From a virus, in UHGV virus genome UHGV-0072595: 18,059 nt of DNA, one strand, 5' to 3'. The translations under genes were made by a program, and so were the position numbers. This document shows, in pieces, positions 3,569 to 18,059 of this stretch (within the stretch, counting starts at the first letter, position 1; each line of letters opens with the position of its first letter). Below the pieces are notes generated by a model. That model was not told the DNA's origin. It ran no database searches and was given only the letters and a program-made list of their open reading frames with translations.

Positions 3569-3937
3569 TCAGGCGGCTTTGATAGTCATATCATCTGAAT
3601 CAAATATTCCTGATGTATCGATATCGGTAATTCTTATTCCTTCGCTACCATCCATTGGAGGCCATCCTTCCTGACCATTTCCATCATTCCAGTCGAACTC
3701 ACACACAACACCATATGCATTTAAGTCGCTTGAAATTGCTATAAGCAGAGCATGTTGCGCCAGCATGATTAATACAGCATTTAATACAGCGCCGTGTTTA
3801 TTGAGTCGGTATTCAGAGTCTGACCAGAAATTATTAATCTGGTGAAGTTTTTCCTCTGTCATTACGTCATGGTCGATTTCAATTTCTATTGATGCTTTCC
3901 AGTCGTAATCAATGATGTATTTTTTGATGTTTGACAT
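3569..3937 (-). CDS. ea10: Ea10 protein (lambda early-left, 122 aa)
   Basis: Track ORF; sequence and length match my recollection of lambda Ea10; located left of ral as in lambda. Confidence 0.8.
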   Translation of the reverse strand: MSNIKKYIIDYDWKASIEIEIDHDVMTEEKLHQINNFWSDSEYRLNKHGAVLNAVLIMLAQHALLIAISSDLNAYGVVCEFDWNDGNGQEGWPPMDGSEGIRITDIDTSGIFDSDDMTIKAA

Positions 3938-4398: not shown

Positions 4399-4725
4399 TC
4401 AAATAAGTGGTTTGCTGCCTAATTTCATTTTCTGGCGACCAACACAAGTCACCCCCATTTCACTGCGTGGCTTGCTGTACCATGTGCGCTGATTCTTGCG
4501 CTCAATACGTTGCAGGTTGCTTTCAATCTGTTCGTGGTATTCAGCCAGCACTGTAAGGTCTATTGGATTCAGTGCGCTTTCTACTCGTGATTTCGGTTTG
4601 CGATTCAGCGAGAGAATAGGGCGGTTAACTGGTTTTGCGCTTACCCCAACCAACAGGGGATTTGCTGCTTTCCATTGAGCCTGTTTCTCTGCGCGACGTT
4701 CGCGGCGGCGTGTTTGTGCATCCAT
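4399..4725 (-). CDS. N: Antiterminator N (lambda N-like; C-terminal residues differ slightly from my recollection of lambda N)
   Basis: Track ORF MDAQTRRRERRAEKQAQWKAANPLLVGVSAKPVNRPILSLNRKPKSRVESALNPIDLTVLAEYH... including the arginine-rich boxB-binding motif; downstream of nutL on the pL transcript. Confidence 0.9.
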   Translation of the reverse strand: MDAQTRRRERRAEKQAQWKAANPLLVGVSAKPVNRPILSLNRKPKSRVESALNPIDLTVLAEYHEQIESNLQRIERKNQRTWYSKPRSEMGVTCVGRQKMKLGSKPLI

Positions 4726-5229: not shown

Positions 5230-5664
5230 TTATTCTTGTTCTCTGGTCAAATTATATAGTTGGAAAACAAGGATGCATATATGAATGAACGATGCAGAGG
5301 CAATGCCGATGGCGATAGTGGGTATCATGTAGCCGCTTATGCTGGAAAGAAGCAATAACCCGCAGAAAAACAAAGCTCCAAGCTCAACAAAACTAAGGGC
5401 ATAGACAATAACTACCGATGTCATATACCCATACTCTCTAATCTTGGCCAGTCGGCGCGTTCTGCTTCCGATTAGAAACGTCAAGGCAGCAATCAGGATT
5501 GCAATCATGGTTCCTGCATATGATGACAATGTCGCCCCAAGACCATCTCTATGAGCTGAAAAAGAAACACCAGGAATGTAGTGGCGGAAAAGGAGATAGC
5601 AAATGCTTACGATAACGTAAGGAATTATTACTATGTAAACACCAGGCATGATTCTGTTCCGCAT
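5230..5664 (-). CDS. rexB: RexB (membrane component of the Rex abortive-infection/exclusion system, 144 aa)
   Basis: Track ORF; multi-pass hydrophobic protein of the right size immediately downstream of rexA as in lambda. Confidence 0.9.
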   Translation of the reverse strand: MRNRIMPGVYIVIIPYVIVSICYLLFRHYIPGVSFSAHRDGLGATLSSYAGTMIAILIAALTFLIGSRTRRLAKIREYGYMTSVVIVYALSFVELGALFFCGLLLLSSISGYMIPTIAIGIASASFIHICILVFQLYNLTREQE

Positions 5665-5679
5665 AATTACTCCTGATAA

Positions 5680-6519
5680 TTAATCCTTAACTTTGCCCAC
5701 CTGCCTTTTAAAACATTCCAGTATATCACTTTTCATTCTTGCGTAGCAATATGCCATCTCTTCAGCTATCTCAGCATTGGTGACCTTGTTCAGAGGCGCT
5801 GAGAGATGGCCTTTTTCTGATAGATAATGTTCTGTTAAAATATCTCCGGCCTCATCTTTTGCCCGCAGGCTAATGTCTGAAAATTGAGGTGACGGGTTAA
5901 AAATAATATCCTTGGCAACCTTTTTTATATCCCTTTTAAATTTTGGCTTAATGACTATATCCAATGAGTCAAAAAGCTCCCCTTCAATATCTGTTGCCCC
6001 TAAGACCTTTAATATATCGCCAAATACAGGTAGCTTGGCTTCTACCTTCACCGTTGTTCGGCCGATGAAATGCATATGCATAACATCGTCTTTGGTGGTT
6101 CCCCTCATCAGTGGCTCTATCTGAACGCGCTCTCCACTGCTTAATGACATTCCTTTCCCGATTAAAAAATCTGTCAGATCGGATGTGGTCGGCCCGAAAA
6201 CAGTTCTGGCAAAACCAATGGTGTCGCCTTCAACAAACAAAAAAGATGGGAATCCCAATGATTCGTCATCTGCGAGGCTGTTCTTAATATCTTCAACTGA
6301 AGCTTTAGAGCGATTTATCTTCTGAACCAGACTCTTGTCATTTGTTTTGGTAAAGAGAAAAGTTTTTCCATCGATTTTATGAATATACAAATAATTGGAG
6401 CCAACCTGCAGGTGATGATTATCAGCCAGCAGAGAATTAAGGAAAACAGACAGGTTTATTGAGCGCTTATCTTTCCCTTTATTTTTGCTGCGGTAAGTCG
6501 CATAAAAACCATTCTTCAT
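5680..6519 (-). CDS. rexA: RexA (sensor component of the Rex system, 279 aa)
   Basis: Track ORF MKNGFYATYRSKNKGKDKRSINLSVFLNSLLADNHHLQ...; matches lambda RexA as I recall it; cotranscribed with cI. Confidence 0.9.
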   Translation of the reverse strand: MKNGFYATYRSKNKGKDKRSINLSVFLNSLLADNHHLQVGSNYLYIHKIDGKTFLFTKTNDKSLVQKINRSKASVEDIKNSLADDESLGFPSFLFVEGDTIGFARTVFGPTTSDLTDFLIGKGMSLSSGERVQIEPLMRGTTKDDVMHMHFIGRTTVKVEAKLPVFGDILKVLGATDIEGELFDSLDIVIKPKFKRDIKKVAKDIIFNPSPQFSDISLRAKDEAGDILTEHYLSEKGHLSAPLNKVTNAEIAEEMAYCYARMKSDILECFKRQVGKVKD

Positions 6520-6631
6520 AATTCAATCCATTTACTATGTTATGTTCTGAGGGGAGTGAAAATTCCCCTAATTCGATGAAGATTCTTGCTCAATTGTTAT
6601 CAGCTATGCGCCGACCAGAACACCTTGCCGA

Positions 6632-7348
<717 letters not shown>

Positions 7349-8077: not shown

Positions 8078-8224
8078 ATGACAAAACAACTCAGTCCTTA
8101 CCAGGACAAAATTCACAAACACATACTACGTGATCGCTTCCTGTCCAGCTTCAAGCAGCCTGGTCGATTCCGGGCTGAGTTGGAAAAAGTGAAGCTGATG
8201 CAGAAGGAGAAAGGTCATGAGTAA
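8078..8224 (+). CDS. Small basic hypothetical protein (48 aa) between cII and the O-like gene
   Basis: Hand translation [48 protein letters not shown]; AGGAG SD 6 nt upstream; stop overlaps the O-like start region. Confidence 0.4.
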
Positions 8225-9077
8225 TCTTGCAACCGTAACACATTTAAGGCCTTCACAACGGCCTGTGGAGCGTCGTGTGGCAGAAGTTGAAGATGGTTAT
8301 ACCCGTCTTGCAAATGCCCTGTATGAAGAGCTTATCGGCGCAGATTTAACGAAAAATCAGAGCAAGGTTGCCCACGCCATATGCCGTAAAACATACGGCT
8401 ACGGTAAAAAGATGGATCGCATCTCTGATAGTCAGTTAGCTCAAATTACCAGGCTGCCAAGACAGAAGGTAAACAAGGCCAAGAATGAGCTTATCGCGAT
8501 GAAGGTTATCCTTCGCGAAGGCCAGCAAATCGGGCCTAACAAGAACATCGAGGAATGGCAAATCGAAGGGTGTCACTACTCTGGTGATAATGTCACTGCA
8601 TTGGTGACAAAAAGTGTCACCAAAACGGTGACAGCGCTGTCACCAAAACAGGGACACACAAAAGAAACTATTACAAAAGAAAAAAGAAATAATAAAAACA
8701 CTATGTCCGAAAGTGTTCGGACGGAGTGTGAAAAATCACATGACCGTCACGAAGAAACCGACAAGGCATTCGAGGAAATATTCTGGTGTGCAGGCATGCG
8801 GAAAGCCGGGAAGAAAAACGCAGCTTCGGCATTCAGAACACAGTTCAGGGAATGGCGTAAAACTACCAGGGGGACGGCAAGCGAGTTTGCCACGATGCTG
8901 GCAGAAGACATCGCATGCAGGAATGGTAAGCAGTTCGGATTCGACAGGTTGTTACCATCGAGCTACCTGAACGGTCAACGCTGGAACGACGAAAAGCCAG
9001 AAACCATTCAACCACAATCCAAACCATCATCCGCAATCACCGTATCGAAAACTGGCTACGTGTTTTTCGACAGGTGA
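8217..9077 (+). CDS. Replication initiator, lambda O-like N-terminal iteron-binding domain with a divergent C-terminal domain (286 aa)
   Basis: Track ORF; N-terminus shares the O-family pattern DDGYxRL...ADLTKxQxKV...RKTYGxxKxMDRIxDSQL...GPNKNIxEW with lambda O; gene contains its own iteron/AT-rich origin. Confidence 0.85.
8582..8700. repeat. Replication origin inside the O-like gene: three to four iterons built on GGTGACA/TGTCACC inverted half-sites (about 8582-8650) followed by an A-rich region
   Basis: Direct reading: ctGGTGAtaaTGTCACtgca, ttGGTGACAaaaagTGTCACCaaaac, GGTGACAgcgcTGTCACCaaaac, then acaaaagaaactattacaaaagaaaaaagaaataataaaaac. Confidence 0.7.
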
Positions 9078-9080
9078 ACC

Positions 9081-9188
9081 ATGAAATCAAAAATCAAATC
9101 GCTACTGGTCGCTGGTTATAACCACGGCTGGTTAAGTATTTCGTTTGTCGATTTCTGGTTTAAAAATCTCAATCTGAGGGAATCATGA
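9081..9188 (+). CDS. Possible small coupled ORF (35 aa) between the O-like gene and the primase-helicase
   Basis: Hand translation MKSKIKSLLVAGYNHGWLSISFVDFWFKNLNLRES; start 4 nt after the O stop; stop overlaps the primase-helicase ATG (ATGA). Confidence 0.3.
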   Translation: MKSKIKSLLVAGYNHGWLSISFVDFWFKNLNLRES

Positions 9189-11065
9189 CGCCAAGTGAAC
9201 TTAGCGACCTGCTTTGGGCGCAGGTTGACAGGGTGGCTCCGCACCTGTTGCCAAACGGCAAGAAAGAGGGGCATGAGTGGGTTGCCGGTAACATCAACGG
9301 TGACAAGGGAAACAGCCTTAAGGTCAACCTTAGCGGCAAGAAAAAATGGGCTGATTTCGCTGAGGGAGACGGCGGTGACATGCTTGATTTGTGGATGGCA
9401 TGTCGTGGAATTAACCTGCATCAGGCTATGCAGGAAGCGAAAGCATTTCTCGGTATCAAGGATGACGATCACCATTTCGATGCCAGACGTGAGAAAAAAT
9501 TCTCCAGACCTGATCGCAAGAAAATCGCCCGCTACGTTACCAGAACAGAATCCCATCTTGAGTACCTGCAATCGCGTGGCATATCGCCAGAAATCGTAAA
9601 GCGCTACGAGGTTGTCAGCGGCAAGGTGTGGAATGGAGAGCGGGAACTGGATGCTCTGGTGATTCCGTACAAACGCGATGGTGAGTTGTTGCAGGTCAAG
9701 CGAATCAGCACTGAGCGCCCGGACGGGAAGAAAGTCATTATGGCAGAAGGTGATTGCGAACCTTGTCTGTTCGGATGGCAGGCTCTGGACGCTGGCGTGA
9801 GGGCGGTTGTACTTTGCGAAGGCGAAATTGATTGTATGAGCTATGCGCAATACGGCATCTCGGCGTTATCCGTACCGTTTGGTGGAGGGAAAGGCGCTAA
9901 GCAACAGTGGATTGAGTTTGAGTATCACAACCTCGACAGGTTTGAGGAAATATTCATCTCGATGGACGTTGATGATGTTGGTCGTGAAGCCGCAAGGGAA
10001 ATCGCAAGCCGACTCGGTGAACATCGTTGCCGTCTTGTTACTCTGCCGTACAAAGACATCAACGAATGCCTGATGAACGGTGTTACCGAGGATGCAATCT
10101 GGCAGTACATCGGCACGGCATCCTACTTTGATCCTGAAGAACTCTACAGCGCGCGAGAGTTTTACCAGGACACTATCAACGCTTTCTACGGCAAGCAGCA
10201 GTATCTGTTTAATCCACCGTGGGAATCTCTGGCAGATAAATTCCAGTTCCGTGAGGCCGAGTTGACGCTGGTCAATGGTGTGAACGGTCACGGAAAAACG
10301 GAGGTTGTCGGGCATATGGCACTTGAGGCAATGCGTCAGGGTGTGAAGACGTGCATCGCGTCACTTGAGCTGAAGCCTGGTATTCTCCTTAAGCGCCTTA
10401 CCCGTCAGGCAACGTGCTGCAAGATGCCGCCAGTGCTGGAAATTGACTCTGCATTTAAATTTTATGACGAAAGACTTTGGGTGTTTGGCCTGACCGGAAC
10501 GGCGAAAGCCGACAGGCTGATCGAAATATTCGACTACGCTCGCCGCCGATACGGGATCCAGTTATTCATCATCGACAGCCTGATGAAATGTGGCATAGGC
10601 GACGATGACTATAACGGGCAGAAGGCGTTTGTTGACTCGATTTGCGACTTCAAAAACAAAACAAACTCCCACGTCATTCTCGTTACTCACTCGCGAAAAG
10701 GAGACAGCGAAGAAAAACCAACCGGGAAAATGGACGTAAAAGGCTCTGGAGCGATAACAGACCTGACAGACAACCTTTTCATCATCTGGCGTAACAAGGC
10801 TCGCGAGAGAGCGTTACAGAGAGTTCAGAGTGGTGAAAAGATGTCAGAGAAGGACGAACAGGTACTGGCGTCTCCGGCATCTGTTTTGATGCTTGAAAAA
10901 CAACGAAACGGCGAAGGTTGGGAAGGTGGTGTCCCGTTGTTCCTTGACGAGCAATCGCACCAGTTCCTGCAACTTGAATCAGGATCGCCATATAGCTACA
11001 TCGCCAATATGCCGAAATCGGAATATGACGAGGCGTGGCGACAGGAAAACGTGACGGAGTATTAA
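9185..11065 (+). CDS. Bifunctional DNA primase-helicase (N-terminal primase/Toprim-like region, C-terminal DnaB/RecA-like helicase), replaces lambda P (626 aa)
   Basis: Track ORF; acidic Toprim-like motifs (CEGEIDCMS, MDVDDVGRE), Walker A NGVNGHGKTE and Walker B-like LFIIDSLMK in the C-terminal half. Confidence 0.8.
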   Translation: MTPSELSDLLWAQVDRVAPHLLPNGKKEGHEWVAGNINGDKGNSLKVNLSGKKKWADFAEGDGGDMLDLWMACRGINLHQAMQEAKAFLGIKDDDHHFDARREKKFSRPDRKKIARYVTRTESHLEYLQSRGISPEIVKRYEVVSGKVWNGERELDALVIPYKRDGELLQVKRISTERPDGKKVIMAEGDCEPCLFGWQALDAGVRAVVLCEGEIDCMSYAQYGISALSVPFGGGKGAKQQWIEFEYHNLDRFEEIFISMDVDDVGREAAREIASRLGEHRCRLVTLPYKDINECLMNGVTEDAIWQYIGTASYFDPEELYSAREFYQDTINAFYGKQQYLFNPPWESLADKFQFREAELTLVNGVNGHGKTEVVGHMALEAMRQGVKTCIASLELKPGILLKRLTRQATCCKMPPVLEIDSAFKFYDERLWVFGLTGTAKADRLIEIFDYARRRYGIQLFIIDSLMKCGIGDDDYNGQKAFVDSICDFKNKTNSHVILVTHSRKGDSEEKPTGKMDVKGSGAITDLTDNLFIIWRNKARERALQRVQSGEKMSEKDEQVLASPASVLMLEKQRNGEGWEGGVPLFLDEQSHQFLQLESGSPYSYIANMPKSEYDEAWRQENVTEY

Positions 11066-11094
11066 ATGACCATCTACATCACTGAGCTTGTAAC

Positions 11095-11126
11095 AGGCCT
11101 GCTGGTAATCGCAGGCCTTTTTATTT
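11095..11126 (+). terminator. Intrinsic terminator after the replication genes (8-bp perfect stem CAGGCCTGC/GCAGGCCT plus U-tract), tR2-like position
   Basis: Direct reading caggcctgctggtaatcgcaggcctttttattt 30 nt after the primase-helicase stop. Confidence 0.65.
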
Positions 11127-11141
11127 GGGGGAGAGTAAATC

Positions 11142-11348
11142 GTGGTTGAGTTTATGCTCGTCGCACTCAAATGCGTTGGCGTTGGATGGATTCTTCTGAC
11201 GTTTTTTATTGTTCTGCATAGCTACATTCGCCTTGTGAATGACGGTAAAGATCCATGGTATACGTTGTTTGGCGCTGCATTTGTCTGGGTGATTATCGGT
11301 GTTATGCCTGTCGCTGTAGCAAAAATGGCGTGGCGTTTTGTGAGTTGA
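11142..11348 (+). CDS. Small two-helix membrane protein (68 aa from GTG; 64 aa if ATG 11154)
   Basis: Track ORF; GGGGGAGAG SD upstream of the GTG; two hydrophobic segments (GVGWILLTFFIVL and LFGAAFVWVIIGVMPVAV) separated by a short polar loop. Confidence 0.55.
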   Translation: MVEFMLVALKCVGVGWILLTFFIVLHSYIRLVNDGKDPWYTLFGAAFVWVIIGVMPVAVAKMAWRFVS

Positions 11349-11365
11349 ACTGAGGGTAAGTATCG

Positions 11366-11686
11366 ATGGACGAATCAAGAAAGCAGTTTGAAGAAAGTTG
11401 GTTGCGACGTGGAGGCGAATCTTCAGACCTTATCCGTTACCCTGAAAATCACCATGAAATTGGCAGTGGTGATATTGGTGGTCAATACGTGATGGACGAT
11501 GTTCAAGGCCACTGGCAAACGTGGCAGGCATCGCGAGCAGCTATTGAAATAACCGCGCCAAAGTTTATCGACAGCAGAGAAGCATTAGCCAAAGGGTTTA
11601 CTGTTGATTATTCCAATGGCTTCGGTGATGCAATGGATGCTTATGAGGAAAACATCCGCGCTGCTGGAGTCAAAGTGAAGGAGTGA
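11366..11686 (+). CDS. Hypothetical protein (106 aa)
   Basis: Track ORF; same-strand operon context; no family recognised. Confidence 0.55.
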   Translation: MDESRKQFEESWLRRGGESSDLIRYPENHHEIGSGDIGGQYVMDDVQGHWQTWQASRAAIEITAPKFIDSREALAKGFTVDYSNGFGDAMDAYEENIRAAGVKVKE

Positions 11687-11688
11687 GT

Positions 11689-11853
11689 ATGAGCGCATAC
11701 GAAGAAATCATGTTAGCCCTGCGATTCTTTTTCGGTGTGGAAGAAGATGAAAACGTAAATGAGATTATCGGGCAAGACCATGACCCGATAGGGACTATTG
11801 CAGCTGCACTTGACGATTACAGGAGTGTAAATGGTGAGGAAACTAACGTTTGA
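11689..11853 (+). CDS. Small acidic hypothetical protein (54 aa), 3' end overlaps the ninB start by 23 nt
   Basis: Hand translation MSAYEEIMLALRFFFGVEEDENVNEIIGQDHDPIGTIAAALDDYRSVNGEETNV; AAGGAG SD at 5 nt. Confidence 0.4.
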   Translation: MSAYEEIMLALRFFFGVEEDENVNEIIGQDHDPIGTIAAALDDYRSVNGEETNV

Positions 11854-12274
11854 ACTAAGAAGCCCCATCCATCAGCAGAACGCCATTCAAGCTATCCAGC
11901 AAATTCTTCCAGACCCAACCAAACCAATCGTAGTAACCATTCAGGAACGCAACCGCAGCTTAGACCAAAACAGGAAGCTATGGGCCTGCTTAGGTGACGT
12001 CTCTCGTCAGGTTGAATGGCATGGTCGCTGGCTGGATGCAGAAAGCTGGAAGTGTGTGTTTACCGCAGCATTAAAGCAGCAGGATGTTGTTCCTAACCTT
12101 GCCGGGAATGGCTTTGTGGTAATAGGCCAGTCAACCAGCAGGATGCGTGTAAGCGAATTTGCGGAGCTATTAGAGCTTATACAGGCATTCGGTACAGAGC
12201 GTGGCGTTAAGTGGTCAGACGAAGCGAGACTGGCTCTGGAGTGGAAAGCGAGATGGGGAGATCGGGCTGCATGA
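11831..12274 (+). CDS. ninB: NinB (Orf family recombination mediator, 147 aa)
   Basis: Track ORF MVRKLTFELRSPIHQQNAIQAIQQILPDPTKPIVVTIQERNRSLDQNRKLWACLGDVSRQVEWHGRWLDAESWK...; matches lambda NinB as I recall it. Confidence 0.9.
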   Translation: MVRKLTFELRSPIHQQNAIQAIQQILPDPTKPIVVTIQERNRSLDQNRKLWACLGDVSRQVEWHGRWLDAESWKCVFTAALKQQDVVPNLAGNGFVVIGQSTSRMRVSEFAELLELIQAFGTERGVKWSDEARLALEWKARWGDRAA

Positions 12275-12798
12275 CTATCAAATCAAATACGCCAGCACAC
12301 GACAAGGACTGCTGGCAAACGCCGCTTTGGCTTTTTGATGCACTGGATATTGAGTTTGGATTCTGGCTGGATTCGGCAGCGAGCGACAAAAATGCTCTGT
12401 GTGCTCACTGGCTAACTGAGGCCGACGACGCGCTCAATTCTGAGTGGGTAAGCCACGGTGCAATCTGGAATAACCCACCGTACAGCAATATCAGGCCGTG
12501 GGTGGAAAAAGCCGCTGAGCAGTGCATACAACAGCGACAGACGGTAGTTATGCTTGTGCCAGAGGATATGTCAGTCGGATGGTTCAGCAAGGCTCTGGAG
12601 AGTGTCGACGAAGTTCGCATCATCACTGATGGACGGATTAATTTTATCGAACCATCGACAGGGCTGGAGAAGAAGGGAAACAGCAAAGGCTCCATGCTGC
12701 TGATTTGGCGACCGTTCATCAGTCCTCGACGGATGTTTACTACCGTATCCAAAGCGGCATTGATGGCGATCGGGCAGGGCGTCAGGAGGGCGGCATGA
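12271..12798 (+). CDS. Phage DNA N6-adenine methyltransferase (Dam family; motif WNNPPYSN), about 175 aa
   Basis: Track ORF 12211..12798 trimmed to ATG 12271 (ATGA overlap with ninB stop); NPPY catalytic motif of N6-adenine/N4-cytosine MTases; small size and no adjacent restriction enzyme. Confidence 0.8.
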
Positions 12799-12971
12799 GG
12801 CGACAGCGACGAAGTTTCACCGACATCATCTGCGAAAACTGCAAATACCTTCCAACGAAACGCTCCAGAAATAAACGCAAGCCAATCCCAAAAGAATCTG
12901 ACGTAAAAACCTTCAATTACACAGCTCACCTGTGGGATATCCGGTGGCTAAGATATCGTGCGAGGAAATGA
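12795..12971 (+). CDS. ninE: NinE (58 aa)
   Basis: Hand-trimmed from track ORF 12705..12971; [58 protein letters not shown] matches lambda NinE as I recall it; ATGA overlap with the MTase stop. Confidence 0.8.
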
Positions 12972-13393
12972 CAATGGATTATTCACAGTTAAGTGATTTT
13001 GAAATTAACAGACGAGTATGTGAGGCTTTAGATATGGAGGAGCATTTCTTCATACCTGATGACGAAGCAGACTTCGATTCTGAGATCCCCACTGACGAAA
13101 GAGGTCCTATTTGGCAGACGCAAAAAAGGGATATTAATGGCTTCCGTTCTTCAAACGGGAATTGCTTCAATCCTTGCAATAATCCTGAATACGCGTGGCC
13201 AATTATCACTGAAAGCAAAATCAGCACTATGTGGATGACAGCGGAAAAAGAATGGTGCGCATGGTCAGGAGGTGATTTAGAGGAAGGTTGTTGGGAATGG
13301 GAAAATATTCCTGGCTACTACTTCTGTGGCGAATCGCCTCTCCGCGCCGCCATGATTGTCTTTCTCATGATGCAGGACGCTAATAATGCTTAG
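12968..13393 (+). CDS. NinX-position protein, Cys/Trp-rich, unknown function (about 141 aa)
   Basis: Track ORF 12932..13393 trimmed to ATG 12968 (ATGA overlap with ninE stop); sits between ninE and ninF where P22-type nin regions carry ninX. Confidence 0.5.
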
Positions 13394-13562
13394 TCCATCC
13401 CAATCTCTTCAATACCAGAAAGAAAGCGTCGAGCGAGCTTTAACGTGCGCTAACTGCGGTCAGAAGCTGCATGTGCTGGAAGTTCACGTGTGTGAGCACT
13501 GCTGCGCAGAACTGATGAGCGATCCGAATAGCTCAATGTACGAGGAAGAAGACGATGAATGA
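13386..13562 (+). CDS. ninF: NinF (58 aa, Cys-rich)
   Basis: Hand translation [58 protein letters not shown]; matches lambda NinF as I recall it. Confidence 0.8.
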   Translation: MLSPSQSLQYQKESVERALTCANCGQKLHVLEVHVCEHCCAELMSDPNSSMYEEEDDE

Positions 13563-14277
13563 GTTAATAAATGGCAATGCCATCAAAATGACAAGCATTG
13601 AAATCGCTGAGTTGGTGGGTAAGCGTCATGACAATGTGAAACGTACCATCGAAACGCTGGCTAAAAATGGTGTTATCCGGCTTCCTCAAATTGAGGTTTC
13701 CGAAAGAATCAATAACTTAGGGTTCAATGTTCAGTACGAGCATTACGTCTTCGAGGGCGAACAAGGTAAGCGAGACAGTATTGTCGTTGTTGCCCAGTTG
13801 TCGCCAGAGTTCACCGCTCGTCTTGTTGACCGTTGGCGAGAGCTTGAAGAAACTGCGGTTAATATCCCCAAAACGCTACCAGAAGCATTGCGCCTTGCTG
13901 CTGATCTTGCTGAGCAGAAAATGCAACTGGAAAACCAGCTCGCAATTGCCGCACCTAAAGTTGAGTTTGCCGATCGCGTTGGCGAGGCCAGTGGAATTTT
14001 GATTGGAAACTTTGCAAAGGTTGTTGGTATTGGTCCGAACAAACTGTTTGCGTGGATGCGCGATCACAAAATCCTTATTGCTTCAGGTTCCCGGCGCAAT
14101 GTGCCAATGCAGGAATATATGGATCGCGGCTATTTCGCAGTGAAAGAAACAGCGGTCAACACAAATCACGGAATACAGATATCGTTCACCACAAAAATCA
14201 CCGGGCGTGGTCAACAGTGGCTGACCAGAAAGCTGCTCGATAACGGAATGCTGAAAGTAACAGGGGAGGCTGCTTAA
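13555..14277 (+). CDS. Roi/Rha-like phage regulatory protein with antirepressor (KilA-C-like) C-terminal region (240 aa)
   Basis: Track ORF; N-terminal MTSIEIAELVGKRHDNVKR motif typical of lambdoid Roi/Rha proteins; assignment from memory of family patterns. Confidence 0.6.
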   Translation: MNELINGNAIKMTSIEIAELVGKRHDNVKRTIETLAKNGVIRLPQIEVSERINNLGFNVQYEHYVFEGEQGKRDSIVVVAQLSPEFTARLVDRWRELEETAVNIPKTLPEALRLAADLAEQKMQLENQLAIAAPKVEFADRVGEASGILIGNFAKVVGIGPNKLFAWMRDHKILIASGSRRNVPMQEYMDRGYFAVKETAVNTNHGIQISFTTKITGRGQQWLTRKLLDNGMLKVTGEAA

Positions 14278-14567
14278 TGGCTAACCTACGCAAAGAAGCG
14301 CGCGGCAGAGAATGCCAGGTACGTATTTACGGCGTATGCAATGGTAATCCTGAAACTACAGTTCTGGCACATTACCGGATGGCTGGAATTTGCGGAACTG
14401 GAATGAAGCCTGACGACCTGATCGGCGCATGGGCTTGTAGCGCGTGTCACGATGAAATCGACCGACGCACAATGATTCTCGACAACAAAGACGCCAGACT
14501 TTACCACCTCGAAGGCGTGATCAGGACGCAGGCGATACTGCTGAAGGAGGGGAAGATTAAGCCATGA
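14277..14567 (+). CDS. YbcO-like (DUF1364) Cys/His-rich putative zinc-binding nuclease (96 aa)
   Basis: Track ORF; conserved CxVR...C...HxR...C...CSACH arrangement; immediately upstream of rusA as in the E. coli DLP12 prophage. Confidence 0.6.
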   Translation: MANLRKEARGRECQVRIYGVCNGNPETTVLAHYRMAGICGTGMKPDDLIGAWACSACHDEIDRRTMILDNKDARLYHLEGVIRTQAILLKEGKIKP

Positions 14568-14926
14568 ACGAATATCAGTTTGTGCTTCCATACCCGCCGT
14601 CGGTGAACACCTACTGGCGAAGACGGGGAAGCCAATACTACATCAGCGATAAAGGCCAGAAATACCGAAAAGACGTTCAGCAAATCATCCGCCAACTCAA
14701 GTTAGACATTTTCACCAAATCACGACTCCGCATCAAAGTCATCGCAGACGTTCCAGACTCCCGCCGCCGCGACCTCGATAACATCCTGAAAGGTTTACTC
14801 GATTCCCTTATCCACGCCGGATTTGCGGAAGACGACGAGCAATTCGATGACATTCGCGTAATTCGTGGTGTGAAAGTACCAGGCGGACGGCTTGGAATAA
14901 AAATCACCGAACTGGAGAACGCATGA
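14564..14926 (+). CDS. rusA: RusA Holliday-junction resolvase (120 aa)
   Basis: Track ORF; LPYPPSVNTYW... N-terminus and DxRRRDLDN catalytic motif characteristic of RusA. Confidence 0.9.
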   Translation: MNEYQFVLPYPPSVNTYWRRRGSQYYISDKGQKYRKDVQQIIRQLKLDIFTKSRLRIKVIADVPDSRRRDLDNILKGLLDSLIHAGFAEDDEQFDDIRVIRGVKVPGGRLGIKITELENA

Positions 14927-15689: not shown

Positions 15690-15764
15690 GGGTCAGTCGT
15701 ATAAAGGTCATTACGGAAGGCTGTTAACCTTCTTATCGTGGTTCGAGTCCACGCTGTCCCGCCA
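15690..15764 (+). tRNA. tRNA-Asn(GUU)-like gene with encoded CCA; atypical (one U-U mismatch in the acceptor stem, weak D-stem)
   Basis: Manual fold: acceptor GGGTCAG/CTGTCCC, anticodon stem GAAGG/CCTTC with loop CTGTTAA, T-arm CGTGG-TTCGAGT-CCACG, discriminator G, CCA. Confidence 0.5.
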
Positions 15765-15769
15765 AATAT

Positions 15770-15845
15770 GCTGGTTTAGCTCCAATGGTAGAGCAGTCGC
15801 CTTGTAAGCGAATGGGTAGCGGTTCAAGTCCGTTAACCAGCACCA
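15770..15845 (+). tRNA. tRNA-Thr(UGU) gene with encoded CCA
   Basis: Manual fold: perfect 7-bp acceptor GCTGGTT/AACCAGC, D-arm GCTC-CAATGGTA-GAGC, anticodon loop CTTGTAA, T-arm AGCGG-TTCAAGT-CCGTT, discriminator A, CCA. Confidence 0.65.
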
Positions 15846-16089
15846 TAACTGAGCCGTAGCCACTGGCTATCCTGAATTCATCAGTGATAGTTACGCTGCG
15901 GCCTTCTACACATGACCTTCGTGAAAGCGGGTGGCATGAGGTTGCGCTAACAACCTCCTGCCGTTTTGCCCGTGCATATCGGTCACGAACAAATCTGATT
16001 ACTAAACACAGTAGCCTGGATTTGTTCTATCAGTAATCGACCTTATTCCTAATTAAATAGAGCAAATCCCCTCAATGAAGGGGTAGAGC

Positions 16090-16293
16090 ATGTACCGTAT
16101 GGACAAAATCAGAGAATGGTTCAGTTACAGCTTCGGAGGACTGACTGCGATGGGTGGCATTCTCTCCCTGAATGACTGGGCTGTCATCATTGGTATTCTT
16201 TGTACTGTCGGCACATTTGGCATCAACTGGTACTACAAGCGCAAAGAGCGCGAGGACAGATTGAATGGCAATGTCACCGGCACTACGAAATAG
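16090..16293 (+). CDS. S: Holin, class II/pinholin-like, with dual-start motif (M-Y-R-M) predicting antiholin and holin forms
   Basis: Track [70 protein letters not shown]; two TM segments, charged C-terminus; immediately upstream of and overlapping the endolysin gene. Confidence 0.75.
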
Positions 16294-16768
16294 CGTAATA
16301 GCGGCGATAAGTGGCGGGGCTATTGCTATAGCATCTGTGTTAATCACTGGACCAAGTGGTAACGATGGCCTGGAAGGTGTCAGCTACATACCATACAAAG
16401 ATATTGTTGGTGTATGGACTGTATGCCACGGACACACCGGAAAAGACATCATGCTCGGTAAAACGTATACCAAAGCAGAATGCAAAGCCCTCCTGAATAA
16501 AGACCTTGCCACGGTCGCCAGACAAATTAACCCGTACATCAAAGTCGATATACCGGAAACAATGCGCGGCGCTCTTTACTCATTCGTTTACAACGTGGGT
16601 GCTGGCAATTTCAGAACATCGACGCTTCTTCGCAAAATAAACCAGGGCGATATCAAAGGCGCATGTGATCAGCTACGTCGCTGGACATATGCTGGCGGTA
16701 AGCAATGGAAAGGTCTCATGACTCGTCGTGAGATTGAGCGTGAAGTCTGTTTGTGGGGGAAACAATGA
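16265..16768 (+). CDS. R: SAR endolysin (T4-lysozyme-fold muramidase with N-terminal signal-arrest-release domain; phage 21 R-like)
   Basis: Track ORF; Gly/Ala-rich weakly hydrophobic N-terminus [21 protein letters not shown] followed by the lysozyme core; matches my recollection of R21. Confidence 0.85.
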
Positions 16769-17226
16769 GCAGAGTAACCGCGATTATCTCCGCTCTGGTT
16801 ATCTGCATCATCGTCTGCCTGTCATGGGCTGTTAATCATTACCGTGATAACGCCATTACCTACAAAGCCCAGCGCGACAAAAATGCCAGAGAACTGAAGC
16901 TGGCGAACGCGGCAATTACTGACATGCAGATGCGTCAGCGTGATGTTGCTGCGCTCGATGCAAAATACACGAAGGAGTTAGCTGATGCGAAAGCTGAAAA
17001 TGATGCTCTGCGTGATGATGTTGCCGCTGGTCGTCGTCGGTTGCACATCAAAGCAGTCTGTCAGTCAGTGCGTGAAGCCACCACCGCCTCCGGCGTGGAT
17101 AATGCAGCCTCCCCCCGACTGGCAGACACCGCTGAACGGGATTATTTCACCCTCAGAGAGAGGCTGATCACGATGCAAAAACAACTGGAAGGAACCCAGA
17201 AGTATATTAATGAGCAGTGCAGATAG
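16765..17226 (+). CDS. Rz: Rz i-spanin (153 aa)
   Basis: Track ORF 16753..17226 trimmed to ATG 16765 (ATGA overlap with endolysin stop); [49 protein letters not shown]...; lambda Rz. Confidence 0.95.
16985..17167 (+). CDS. Rz1: Rz1 o-spanin lipoprotein embedded in the +1 frame of Rz (60 aa, proline-rich)
   Basis: Track [63 protein letters not shown]; lipobox VVGC; matches lambda Rz1. Confidence 0.9.
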
Positions 17227-17257
17227 AGCTGCCCATATCGATGGGCAACTCATGCAA

Positions 17258-17551
17258 TTATTGTGAGCAATAGACACGCGCTTCCAGCGGAGTATAAATG
17301 CCTAAAGTAATAAAACCGAGCAATCCATTTACGAATGTTTGCTGGGTTTCTGTTTTAACAACATTTTCTGCGCCGCCACAAATTTTGGCTGCATCAACAG
17401 TTTTCTCCTGTCCAATTCCCGAAACGAAGAAGTGATGGGTGATGGTTTCCTTTGGTGTTACTGCTGTCGGTTTGTTTCCAACAGTAAACGTCTGTTGAGC
17501 ACATCCTGTAATAAGCATTGCCAGAGCGGCAGAAAACAACATTTTTTTCAT
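17258..17551 (-). CDS. bor: Bor outer-membrane lipoprotein (serum-resistance/Iss family, 97 aa)
   Basis: Track ORF 17258..17599 trimmed to ATG 17551 (MKKMLFSAALAMLITGCAQQ..., lipobox LITGC; AGGA SD); matches lambda Bor. Confidence 0.9.
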   Translation of the reverse strand: MKKMLFSAALAMLITGCAQQTFTVGNKPTAVTPKETITHHFFVSGIGQEKTVDAAKICGGAENVVKTETQQTFVNGLLGFITLGIYTPLEARVYCSQ

Positions 17552-17910
17552 CTTATTATCCTGCATTGTTAAAAACGGCAGAATCCTATGTGACAACAAT
17601 TAAACGATAGTTAAATGGATTGATGAAAATTAAAACTATATAGGTGGATGCTCAGCCTATTGGAGGAGGGGGGCACTCAGAATCCTGTGGAATGAAATAA
17701 ACCGCTCTTTCTGTCCATTACCCTTTTAGCTGCGCTGTATCGTCGCCGTATTCCCGCATTAACCATGACCGTAGCCCGACGGGGAATTCCTTCTGCGTGA
17801 GTGTGCGGGAATAATCAAAAACGATGCACACCGGGTTTTACTGTGCTGACAGACGCAGGGTTACCCTCATAGTCGCTTTTCCGGTGCGATGGTGGAAGAA
17901 ACCGGGATGT

Positions 17911-18045
17911 TTATTCATCATCACTTTGGATTGATGTACATGCTCTCTTTTCTGACGTTAGTCTCCGACGGCAGGCTTCAATGACCCAGGCTGAGAAATT
18001 CCCAGACCCTTTTTGCTCAAGAGCGATGTTAATTTGTTCAATCAT
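17911..18045 (-). CDS. Possible small ORF (44 aa) with a ribbon-helix-helix-like N-terminus
   Basis: Hand translation of minus strand MIEQINIALEQKGSGNFSAWVIEACRRRLTSEKRACTSIQSDDE; weak SD; below the ORF-track size cut-off. Confidence 0.25.
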   Translation of the reverse strand: MIEQINIALEQKGSGNFSAWVIEACRRRLTSEKRACTSIQSDDE

Positions 18046-18059
18046 TTGGTTAGGAAAGC

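Follow-up and report, generated by a model that had tools for sequence, protein, structure and literature searches.

A nin-region adenine methyltransferase identical to M.EcoVT2Dam and its probable role in GATC methylation of phage DNA

INTRODUCTION

Phages of Dam-positive (Dam+) hosts can carry a GATC methyltransferase of their own, and why they do so is a modestly interesting question. The closest described enzyme for the present purpose is M.EcoVT2Dam of prophage VT2-Sa. Its target is given as GATC in a passage of PMC6602927 that cites Radlinska & Bujnicki 2001 (PMID 11720311), and the primary paper appears among the phage Dam enzymes in the reference list of PMC7556043. Here, we describe a copy of this gene in UHGV virus genome UHGV-0072595, a viral DNA of 18,059 nucleotides, the whole of which is referred to below as the window. 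The gene lies between ninB and ninE, and its product, a DNA N6-adenine methyltransferase of 175 amino acids (aa), also occurs in phages Phi24B ('dam', CM2), Min27 and Stx2 converting phage II, with a 99% match in HK97 (PMC3342100).

Two further phage enzymes, those of T1 and HP1, are likewise called Dam methyltransferases in the literature listed among the references of PMC7556043. T1 Dam has been shown to methylate GATC (PMC10470545). T1 DNA prepared from a dam- host is still sensitive to DpnI; with the phage dam gene deleted, T1 DNA is unmethylated on a dam- host and partly methylated on a dam+ host (PMC10470545).

RESULTS

The open reading frame (ORF) runs on the + strand from an ATG at 12271 to a TGA at 12798, 175 codons in all, and begins MTIKSNT. 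Its product is identical at 175 of 175 positions to orf32 (NP_050531) of the Stx2 phage VT2-Sakai. That protein is the only annotated methyltransferase of VT2-Sakai; a Pfam scan of orf3–orf5 beside int/xis, where a hidden MT-A70 enzyme was sought, returned no methyltransferase domain. The original prediction held that specificity could not be inferred from the sequence. Because the protein is identical to M.EcoVT2Dam, which the sources cited above report as GATC-specific, a specificity can in fact be assigned: by identity, the window gene is M.EcoVT2Dam, and its product would methylate the adenine of GATC, as host Dam does. The assignment of N6-methyladenine (m6A) formation at GATC thus combines 100% protein identity with the statements quoted from the literature. 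The gene is therefore already known, an ordinary copy of a characterised lambdoid-phage enzyme.

Family searches agree on the type of enzyme. The sole Pfam match, well outside what chance would give, is PF05869, 'DNA N-6-adenine-methyltransferase (Dam)' (E 6e-65; score 218 bits, cut-off 28; profile positions 1–167 of 169). The NCBIfam equivalog TIGR01712 (phage N-6-adenine-methyltransferase) is matched over its full length (positions 1–165 of 165) with 266 bits against a cut-off of 97, and the protein also falls in PHROG 111, 'DNA methyltransferase'. The Pfam scan gave no match to PF02086 (MethyltransfD12), the family of E. coli Dam, T4 Dam and DpnM. Nor is the protein of the MT-A70 family: the motif is NPPY, not DPPW, and Pfam assigns the protein to PF05869 only.

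The residues expected of a working enzyme are in place. The motif WNNPPYSN occupies residues 66–73, and the NPPY within it, catalytic motif IV of amino-methyltransferases, is invariant among 58 homologues, in T1 Dam and in HP1 Dam, and indeed in all alignments. The original prediction had named a disrupted catalytic motif as one finding that would overturn it; on alignment the motif is intact. In alignments of 19 and 58 sequences that include the T1 and HP1 enzymes, L33 and D34 are invariant, and A36/A37 are invariant or nearly so. These residues belong to the loop LDSAAS, which resembles motif I and probably serves in the binding of S-adenosylmethionine (AdoMet). Invariant positions shared with both T1 and HP1 Dam include T-P at 17–18, LD at 33–34, NPPYS at 68–72, D99, S101, W104 and R122. 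The ORF is full length and keeps all of the invariant family residues. A further profile search, aimed at more remote relatives, did not broaden the alignment used for structure prediction, since its best 120 matches were all at least 58% identical.

An AlphaFold2 model built with 58 homologues (pLDDT 91, pTM 0.88) shows a single compact alpha/beta domain of the Rossmann type, spanning residues 19–174 and closed by a C-terminal helix. Strands are placed at residues 31–36, 46–48, 64–68, 92–97, 114–119, 141–146 and 155–160; the LDSAAS loop follows the first of these, and NPPY follows the strand at 64–68. The model has no other lobe to act as a target-recognition domain. How a 175-aa enzyme with such an architecture reads a 4-bp site is a modestly interesting question in its own right. 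The structural matches, all of them limited to the catalytic cores of much larger enzymes, are led by PCIF1/CAPAM (match figure 10.2), M.TaqI (9.5), M.BseCI (9.4), MmeI (9.0), CamA (8.7) and type I HsdM (~8), with the GATC enzymes E. coli Dam (7.8), DpnM (7.1) and T4 Dam (7.1) behind them. Foldseek likewise places PCIF1, an RNA cap m6Am methyltransferase, at the top. Whether the protein alone or a profile of 19 sequences was used as the query, a search of sequences in the Protein Data Bank (PDB) gave chance matches only and no PF05869 member among solved structures. Judged from the model, the enzyme is minimal and gamma-class-like, in the manner of M.TaqI and PCIF1, and its fold lies further from that of host Dam. 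The label 'Dam-family N6-adenine methyltransferase' in the original prediction is thus half right: membership of the phage family PF05869/TIGR01712 stands, and kinship with PF02086 does not. Since there is no PF02086 match and the fold is nearer the gamma class, 'Dam' here denotes a shared target site, not shared ancestry.

Both ends of the gene overlap its neighbours by an ATGA. At the 5′ end, the ATG of the methyltransferase (12271–12273) is interlaced with the TGA of ninB (12272–12274); at the 3′ end, its TGA (12796–12798) is interlaced with the ATG of ninE (12795–12797). Read from these overlaps, the gene is translationally coupled to both neighbours, whose identities as NinB and NinE are confirmed by Pfam. 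The original prediction, an ORF of about 175 aa with WNNPPYSN at this position, coupled between ninB and ninE, is borne out on each of these points. A GATC at 12260–12263 overlaps the Shine-Dalgarno-like GGAG ahead of the start codon, so that the enzyme's own target lies in its own translation-initiation region; another GATC, at 12768, is close to the ninE start.

Two alternative readings of the locus were rejected. The first is a 195-aa version starting at GTG 12211; the family profiles and the T1, HP1 and VT2-Sakai proteins all align from MTIKSNT. The second is an antisense ORF of 174 codons (12405–12929, - strand), which is called as a gene in some phage annotations and matches phrog_37455 ('unknown function') with E 2e-120. 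Its frame is broken by three to four stops in homologues from Pectobacterium, Serratia and Yersinia (68–80% protein identity), by five in HP1 and by ten in T1, and it is therefore a shadow ORF.

No sigma-70-like promoter was found in 10900–13700. A terminator scan located a strong tR2-like intrinsic terminator (from 11095), with an 8-bp stem that includes six GC pairs and a T-run, between the primase-helicase gene and ninB. The DNA around it (11066–11135) is ~96% identical to the lambda ren–ninB region, which is the position of tR2. The methyltransferase gene accordingly has the attributes of a nin-region gene: it lies between the replication genes and Q, follows a tR2-type terminator, is co-oriented with its neighbours and has no promoter of its own. 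Because the gene lacks its own promoter, has a tR2-like terminator upstream and is coupled to nin genes, and because N, cro and cII are present, the enzyme would be made as a delayed-early product of pR after N antitermination, when the phage is induced or grows lytically, but not while the prophage is quiescent. The Phi24B gene (CM2, or dam; 100% identical to NP_050531) shows lytic-cycle-linked expression in quantitative PCR (qPCR), with a significant change upon induction by norfloxacin (PMC3342100). A second, weaker terminator-like hairpin is present at 11178–11213, within a small ORF at 11142–11348. No Rfam family was matched in 10900–13700.

The methyltransferase is an orphan: no cognate restriction endonuclease lies in its neighbourhood, as the original prediction had noted. 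Nine neighbouring ORFs (11366–14926) gave no PADLOC match and no restriction endonuclease, and the Pfam matches of the nin region are all to nin-region families (NinB, NinE, NinX, NinF, Ant, YbcO, RusA, NinH and Q). The methyltransferase itself best matches the 'orphan methyltransferase' (oMTase) models of PADLOC. Two small ORFs upstream of ninB (11366–11686 and 11683–11853) have no Pfam match, and no MT-A70 gene was found among the Pfam-scanned ORFs of the window.

The junctions of the gene with its surroundings are sharp. In a blastn comparison of the window, homology to VT2-Sakai begins 7 nt before the methyltransferase ATG and stops at the end of ninE. Homology to lambda covers window positions 11840–12274 (ninB, 95.6%) and resumes at 12802–12968 (ninE, 95.2%). 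The ninB of the window is the lambda-type allele and gave no blastn match to VT2-Sakai ninB. As lambda homology runs through ninB and returns in ninE, the methyltransferase gene replaces ninC and ninD exactly at gene boundaries, and together with ninE it behaves as a mosaic cassette.

At at least 95% nucleotide identity, the 528-bp gene is found in 244 phage records, including HK97-like phages, HK544, Sf101, mEp043-type phages, and Stx1 and Stx2 phages. Of 5426 complete E. coli genomes, 1566 (~29%) carry it, in up to five copies per genome, and it is annotated between ninB and ninE throughout the E. coli matches listed; the view that such genes are widespread in lambdoid prophages is thus confirmed. 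The wider family forms 8784 clusters at 50% identity (E <= 0.001). Homologues from other genera have different neighbours. In prophages of Pectobacterium (80% identity) and Serratia (73%), the gene follows a DUF1367 gene and precedes NinF, or a small ORF and NinF, and then NinG; in Yersinia (68%), it ends the early-left operon, beside host genes. Neither ninB nor ninE is a neighbour in any of the three, and the methyltransferase is therefore independent of NinB and NinE.

Database gene calls join the methyltransferase to NinE, NinB, RusA, CII and others (P0002, P0022, P0013, P0117, P0121, P0011, P0005); the call with NinE is 233 aa long, the sum of 175 and 58, and comprises 41 member sequences. 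We rejected these calls as evidence for a protein partner: single-base indels at the ATGA overlaps, or errors of gene calling or assembly, would account for them most simply, and the neighbours of homologues vary. In some distant members of the family (~46–50% identity; P0165, P0166, P0170, P0173, P0182, P0268), the PF05869-like domain forms the C-terminal part of a longer protein, of 500–690 aa.

The window has about half the expected number of GATC sites, 39 against 75 ± 8 in shuffles. A trinucleotide model gives an observed/expected ratio of 0.50; among 4-mer palindromes, only CTAG is more strongly depleted. The late/lysis part (15700–18059) has two sites against ~9 expected. Ratios elsewhere are 0.59 in VT2-Sakai, 0.63 in HP1 and 0.78 in T1. 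GATC is thus under-represented although the window phage, VT2-Sakai and HP1 encode their own GATC methyltransferase.

The remaining genes of the window define a lambdoid mosaic. The order is ea22-like, abc2, SSB, erf, N, rexB, rexA, cI, cro, cII, O and primase-helicase, followed by two small ORFs, ninB, the methyltransferase gene, ninE, ninX, ninF, an Ant/KilAC antirepressor, ybcO, rusA, ninH, Q, lysozyme and Rz. In the replication module, a lambda-type O (8217–9077) is accompanied, in place of lambda P, by a 626-aa primase-helicase with Toprim and DnaB-C/AAA_25 domains (9185–11065, + strand); the same pairing is found upstream of the methyltransferase homologue in the Serratia prophage. The recombination module (889–2995, - strand) is P22-like, not lambda Red, and consists of the anti-RecBCD protein Abc2 (1657–1953), an SSB-like protein (1977–2450, phrog_44) and Erf (2360–2995), with a 205-aa protein of unknown function (886–1503, phrog_614) beside it. 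DUF2528 lies at 3569–3937 and N at 4399–4725. The immunity region (5230–7345, - strand) is lambda-type, with the abortive-infection pair rexB and rexA and a cI repressor of the S24-peptidase type. Features of the locus are collected in Table 1.

Table 1. Features of the methyltransferase locus in the window
Feature	Coordinates	Strand	Evidence
175-aa phage N6-adenine DNA methyltransferase, coding sequence	12271..12798	+	ORF, PF05869, TIGR01712, identity to VT2-Sakai
L33-D34-S35-A36-A37-S38 codons; motif-I-like, putative AdoMet-binding loop at end of first beta-strand	12367..12384	+	Alignments, model
N68-P69-P70-Y71 codons; catalytic motif IV of amino-methyltransferases	12472..12483	+	Sequence, alignments, model
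ATGA overlap, methyltransferase start codon/ninB stop codon	12271..12274	+	Sequence; 4-nt overlap likewise annotated in VT2-Sakai
ATGA overlap, ninE start codon/methyltransferase stop codon	12795..12798	+	Sequence; overlap likewise annotated in VT2-Sakai
GGAG, Shine-Dalgarno-like, within 3′ end of ninB, 10 nt before methyltransferase ATG	12257..12260	+	Sequence
Mosaic module, methyltransferase gene + ninE (705 bp)	12264..12968	+	blastn vs VT2-Sakai, 99.0% identity
ninB, orf-family recombination mediator, upstream neighbour	11831..12274	+	PF05772, E 2e-54
ninE, downstream neighbour	12795..12971	+	PF05322, E 3e-42
tR2-like intrinsic terminator (8-bp stem, six GC pairs; T-run), immediately downstream of primase-helicase gene	11095..11128	+	Terminator scan

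DISCUSSION

The window gene very probably encodes a GATC methyltransferase of the M.EcoVT2Dam type that is made from pR upon induction and tops up the methylation of phage DNA. Such a supplement would be needed because host Dam is in limited supply and falls behind phage replication: rapidly replicating phage DNA would outpace the host enzyme, and the phage methyltransferase would complete GATC methylation before packaging. Fully methylated DNA would then be indistinguishable from that of the host and refractory to nicking by MutH, to binding by SeqA and to m6A-sensitive GATC nucleases, and it is presumably there that the physiological benefit of the enzyme lies.

Several points weigh against this interpretation. 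The GATC specificity stands on secondary citations together with protein identity. The model offers no recognisable target-recognition domain, which would leave the readout of GATC to be explained. If self-methylation had removed every cost of GATC, depletion of the site would be unnecessary. Finally, the Phi24B protein was first detected in lysogen cultures, a finding that its authors credit to a spontaneously induced sub-population (PMC3342100).

The original prediction favoured protection of phage DNA from host restriction. In its GATC form, this would mean that progeny leave the cell pre-methylated against MboI/DpnII-type systems in the next host, and that the enzyme was selected for this. 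Such a role is the usual reading of phage-borne orphan methyltransferases; it suits an enzyme with no endonuclease partner and a family as widespread as this one (8784 clusters), and past selection by GATC-directed nucleases could have left the GATC depletion seen in the window, VT2-Sakai and HP1. However, the hosts in question (E. coli, Shigella and Salmonella) are Dam+; they already methylate GATC and cannot carry m6A-sensitive GATC endonucleases. Moreover, in the one relevant test on a family member, a Dnd system that recognises GATC restricted T1 to the same extent whatever its GATC methylation (PMC10470545). We consider anti-restriction possible but unlikely as the selected role. Topping up of GATC methylation agrees better with what has been published on T1 (PMC10470545).

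There is also a small chance that the enzyme does something beyond copying host Dam. It may act on relaxed or additional substrates, such as hemimethylated or single-stranded replication intermediates or RNA, or it may have been selected to blind a host system that reads GATC left un- or hemimethylated on replicating phage DNA. Candidates for the latter may include MutH cleavage during recombination between diverged phages, sequestration by SeqA, or an undescribed defence. The presence of the recombination genes ninB and rusA nearby would fit such blinding.

A role mainly in the lysogen, whereby the enzyme supplements host Dam, stabilises lysogeny or epigenetically reprogrammes host or prophage expression, seems improbable. 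The identical Phi24B protein occurs in lysogen cultures, its authors suggested that it supplements host Dam, and stable lysogeny of 933W requires host Dam (PMC3342100). Against this, qPCR in the same study groups the Phi24B gene with those of the lytic cycle, and in the window no promoter-like site precedes the gene, with a terminator upstream. In Shiga toxin-producing E. coli, GATC methylation stands at 99.9% whether or not phage copies are present (PMC6602927), so that a further GATC enzyme makes no detectable difference to the lysogen.

More doubtful still is the idea that the annotation misleads and that the real or an additional substrate is RNA, single-stranded DNA or adenines in relaxed contexts, with specificity perhaps conferred by a partner such as NinE. 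What speaks for it is the lack of a target-recognition domain in the model, the standing of PCIF1 as top structural neighbour, the gene calls in which the methyltransferase is fused to NinE (P0002, P0022), and the precedent of phiPA8, whose enzyme methylates 16S rRNA (PMC10810198). The phiPA8 enzyme, however, belongs to a different family (MT-A70, DPPW) and a different locus, and the sources quoted here describe M.EcoVT2Dam, T1 Dam and HP1 Dam alike as DNA enzymes that act on GATC. Homologues exist without NinE, and fused calls are expected from a single-base indel at an ATGA. The genes of the nin region are dispensable for plaque formation by lambda, as the nin5 deletion shows, which would suit an inactive remnant that persists as part of the nin mosaic, but this is extremely unlikely for a full-length ORF that retains all the invariant residues of the family, whose product is the same as a cloned enzyme reported as GATC-specific, and which is present in 1540 genomes at at least 95% nucleotide identity over at least 80% of the query.

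Encoding a protein identical to a cloned enzyme and present in ~29% of complete E. coli genomes, the gene carries little weight as a discovery. The gain lies in annotation, where GATC can now be entered as the specificity instead of 'unknown', with the caution that the name 'Dam' should not imply homology to host Dam.

Among enzymes that might be confused with this one, several were considered and rejected. The rRNA-methylating enzyme of phiPA8 is not this gene, being an MT-A70/DPPW protein at a different locus (PMC10810198). M.EcoGIX of E. coli O104:H4 was set aside as a plasmid-borne, single-strand-specific enzyme. The non-specific adenine methyltransferases Hia5, Hin1523 and Nma1821 carry DPPY and FxGxG, and PMC3299994 is silent on the HP1/T1/VT2 group. 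M.EfaBMDam-like phage enzymes are grouped with MT-A70/DPPW proteins, unlike the NPPY enzyme of the window.

Finally, the comparison with known systems places the window enzyme at graded distances from its relatives. M.EcoPA8orf6770P of phiPA8 is similar in being small, encoded by an Stx-type lambdoid prophage and annotated as a DNA adenine methyltransferase; it differs in its MT-A70 family and DPPW motif, in mapping to the opposite end of the early region (gp5), in its need for the partner PNB-2 and in methylating 16S rRNA (PMC10810198). The alpha-class enzymes E. coli Dam, T4 Dam and DpnM (PF02086) share the reaction, the GATC target and a Rossmann-type core with the window enzyme. T1 Dam (YP_003925) and HP1 Dam (NP_043482) belong, like it, to PF05869, with identities of only 32% and 35%; T1 Dam differs further by an N-terminal extension of 35 aa and an insert of 14 aa. 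T1 is a virulent siphovirus and HP1 a P2-like phage, and the genomic contexts of both genes are unlike that of the window. Closest of all is M.EcoVT2Dam of VT2-Sakai, with an identical protein, the same order ninB–methyltransferase–ninE, the same 4-nt overlaps and 99.0% identity of the module DNA, in a phage that the window phage otherwise departs from in its lambda-type ninB allele, its rexAB/cI immunity, its Erf/Abc2 module and the absence of stx from the window.

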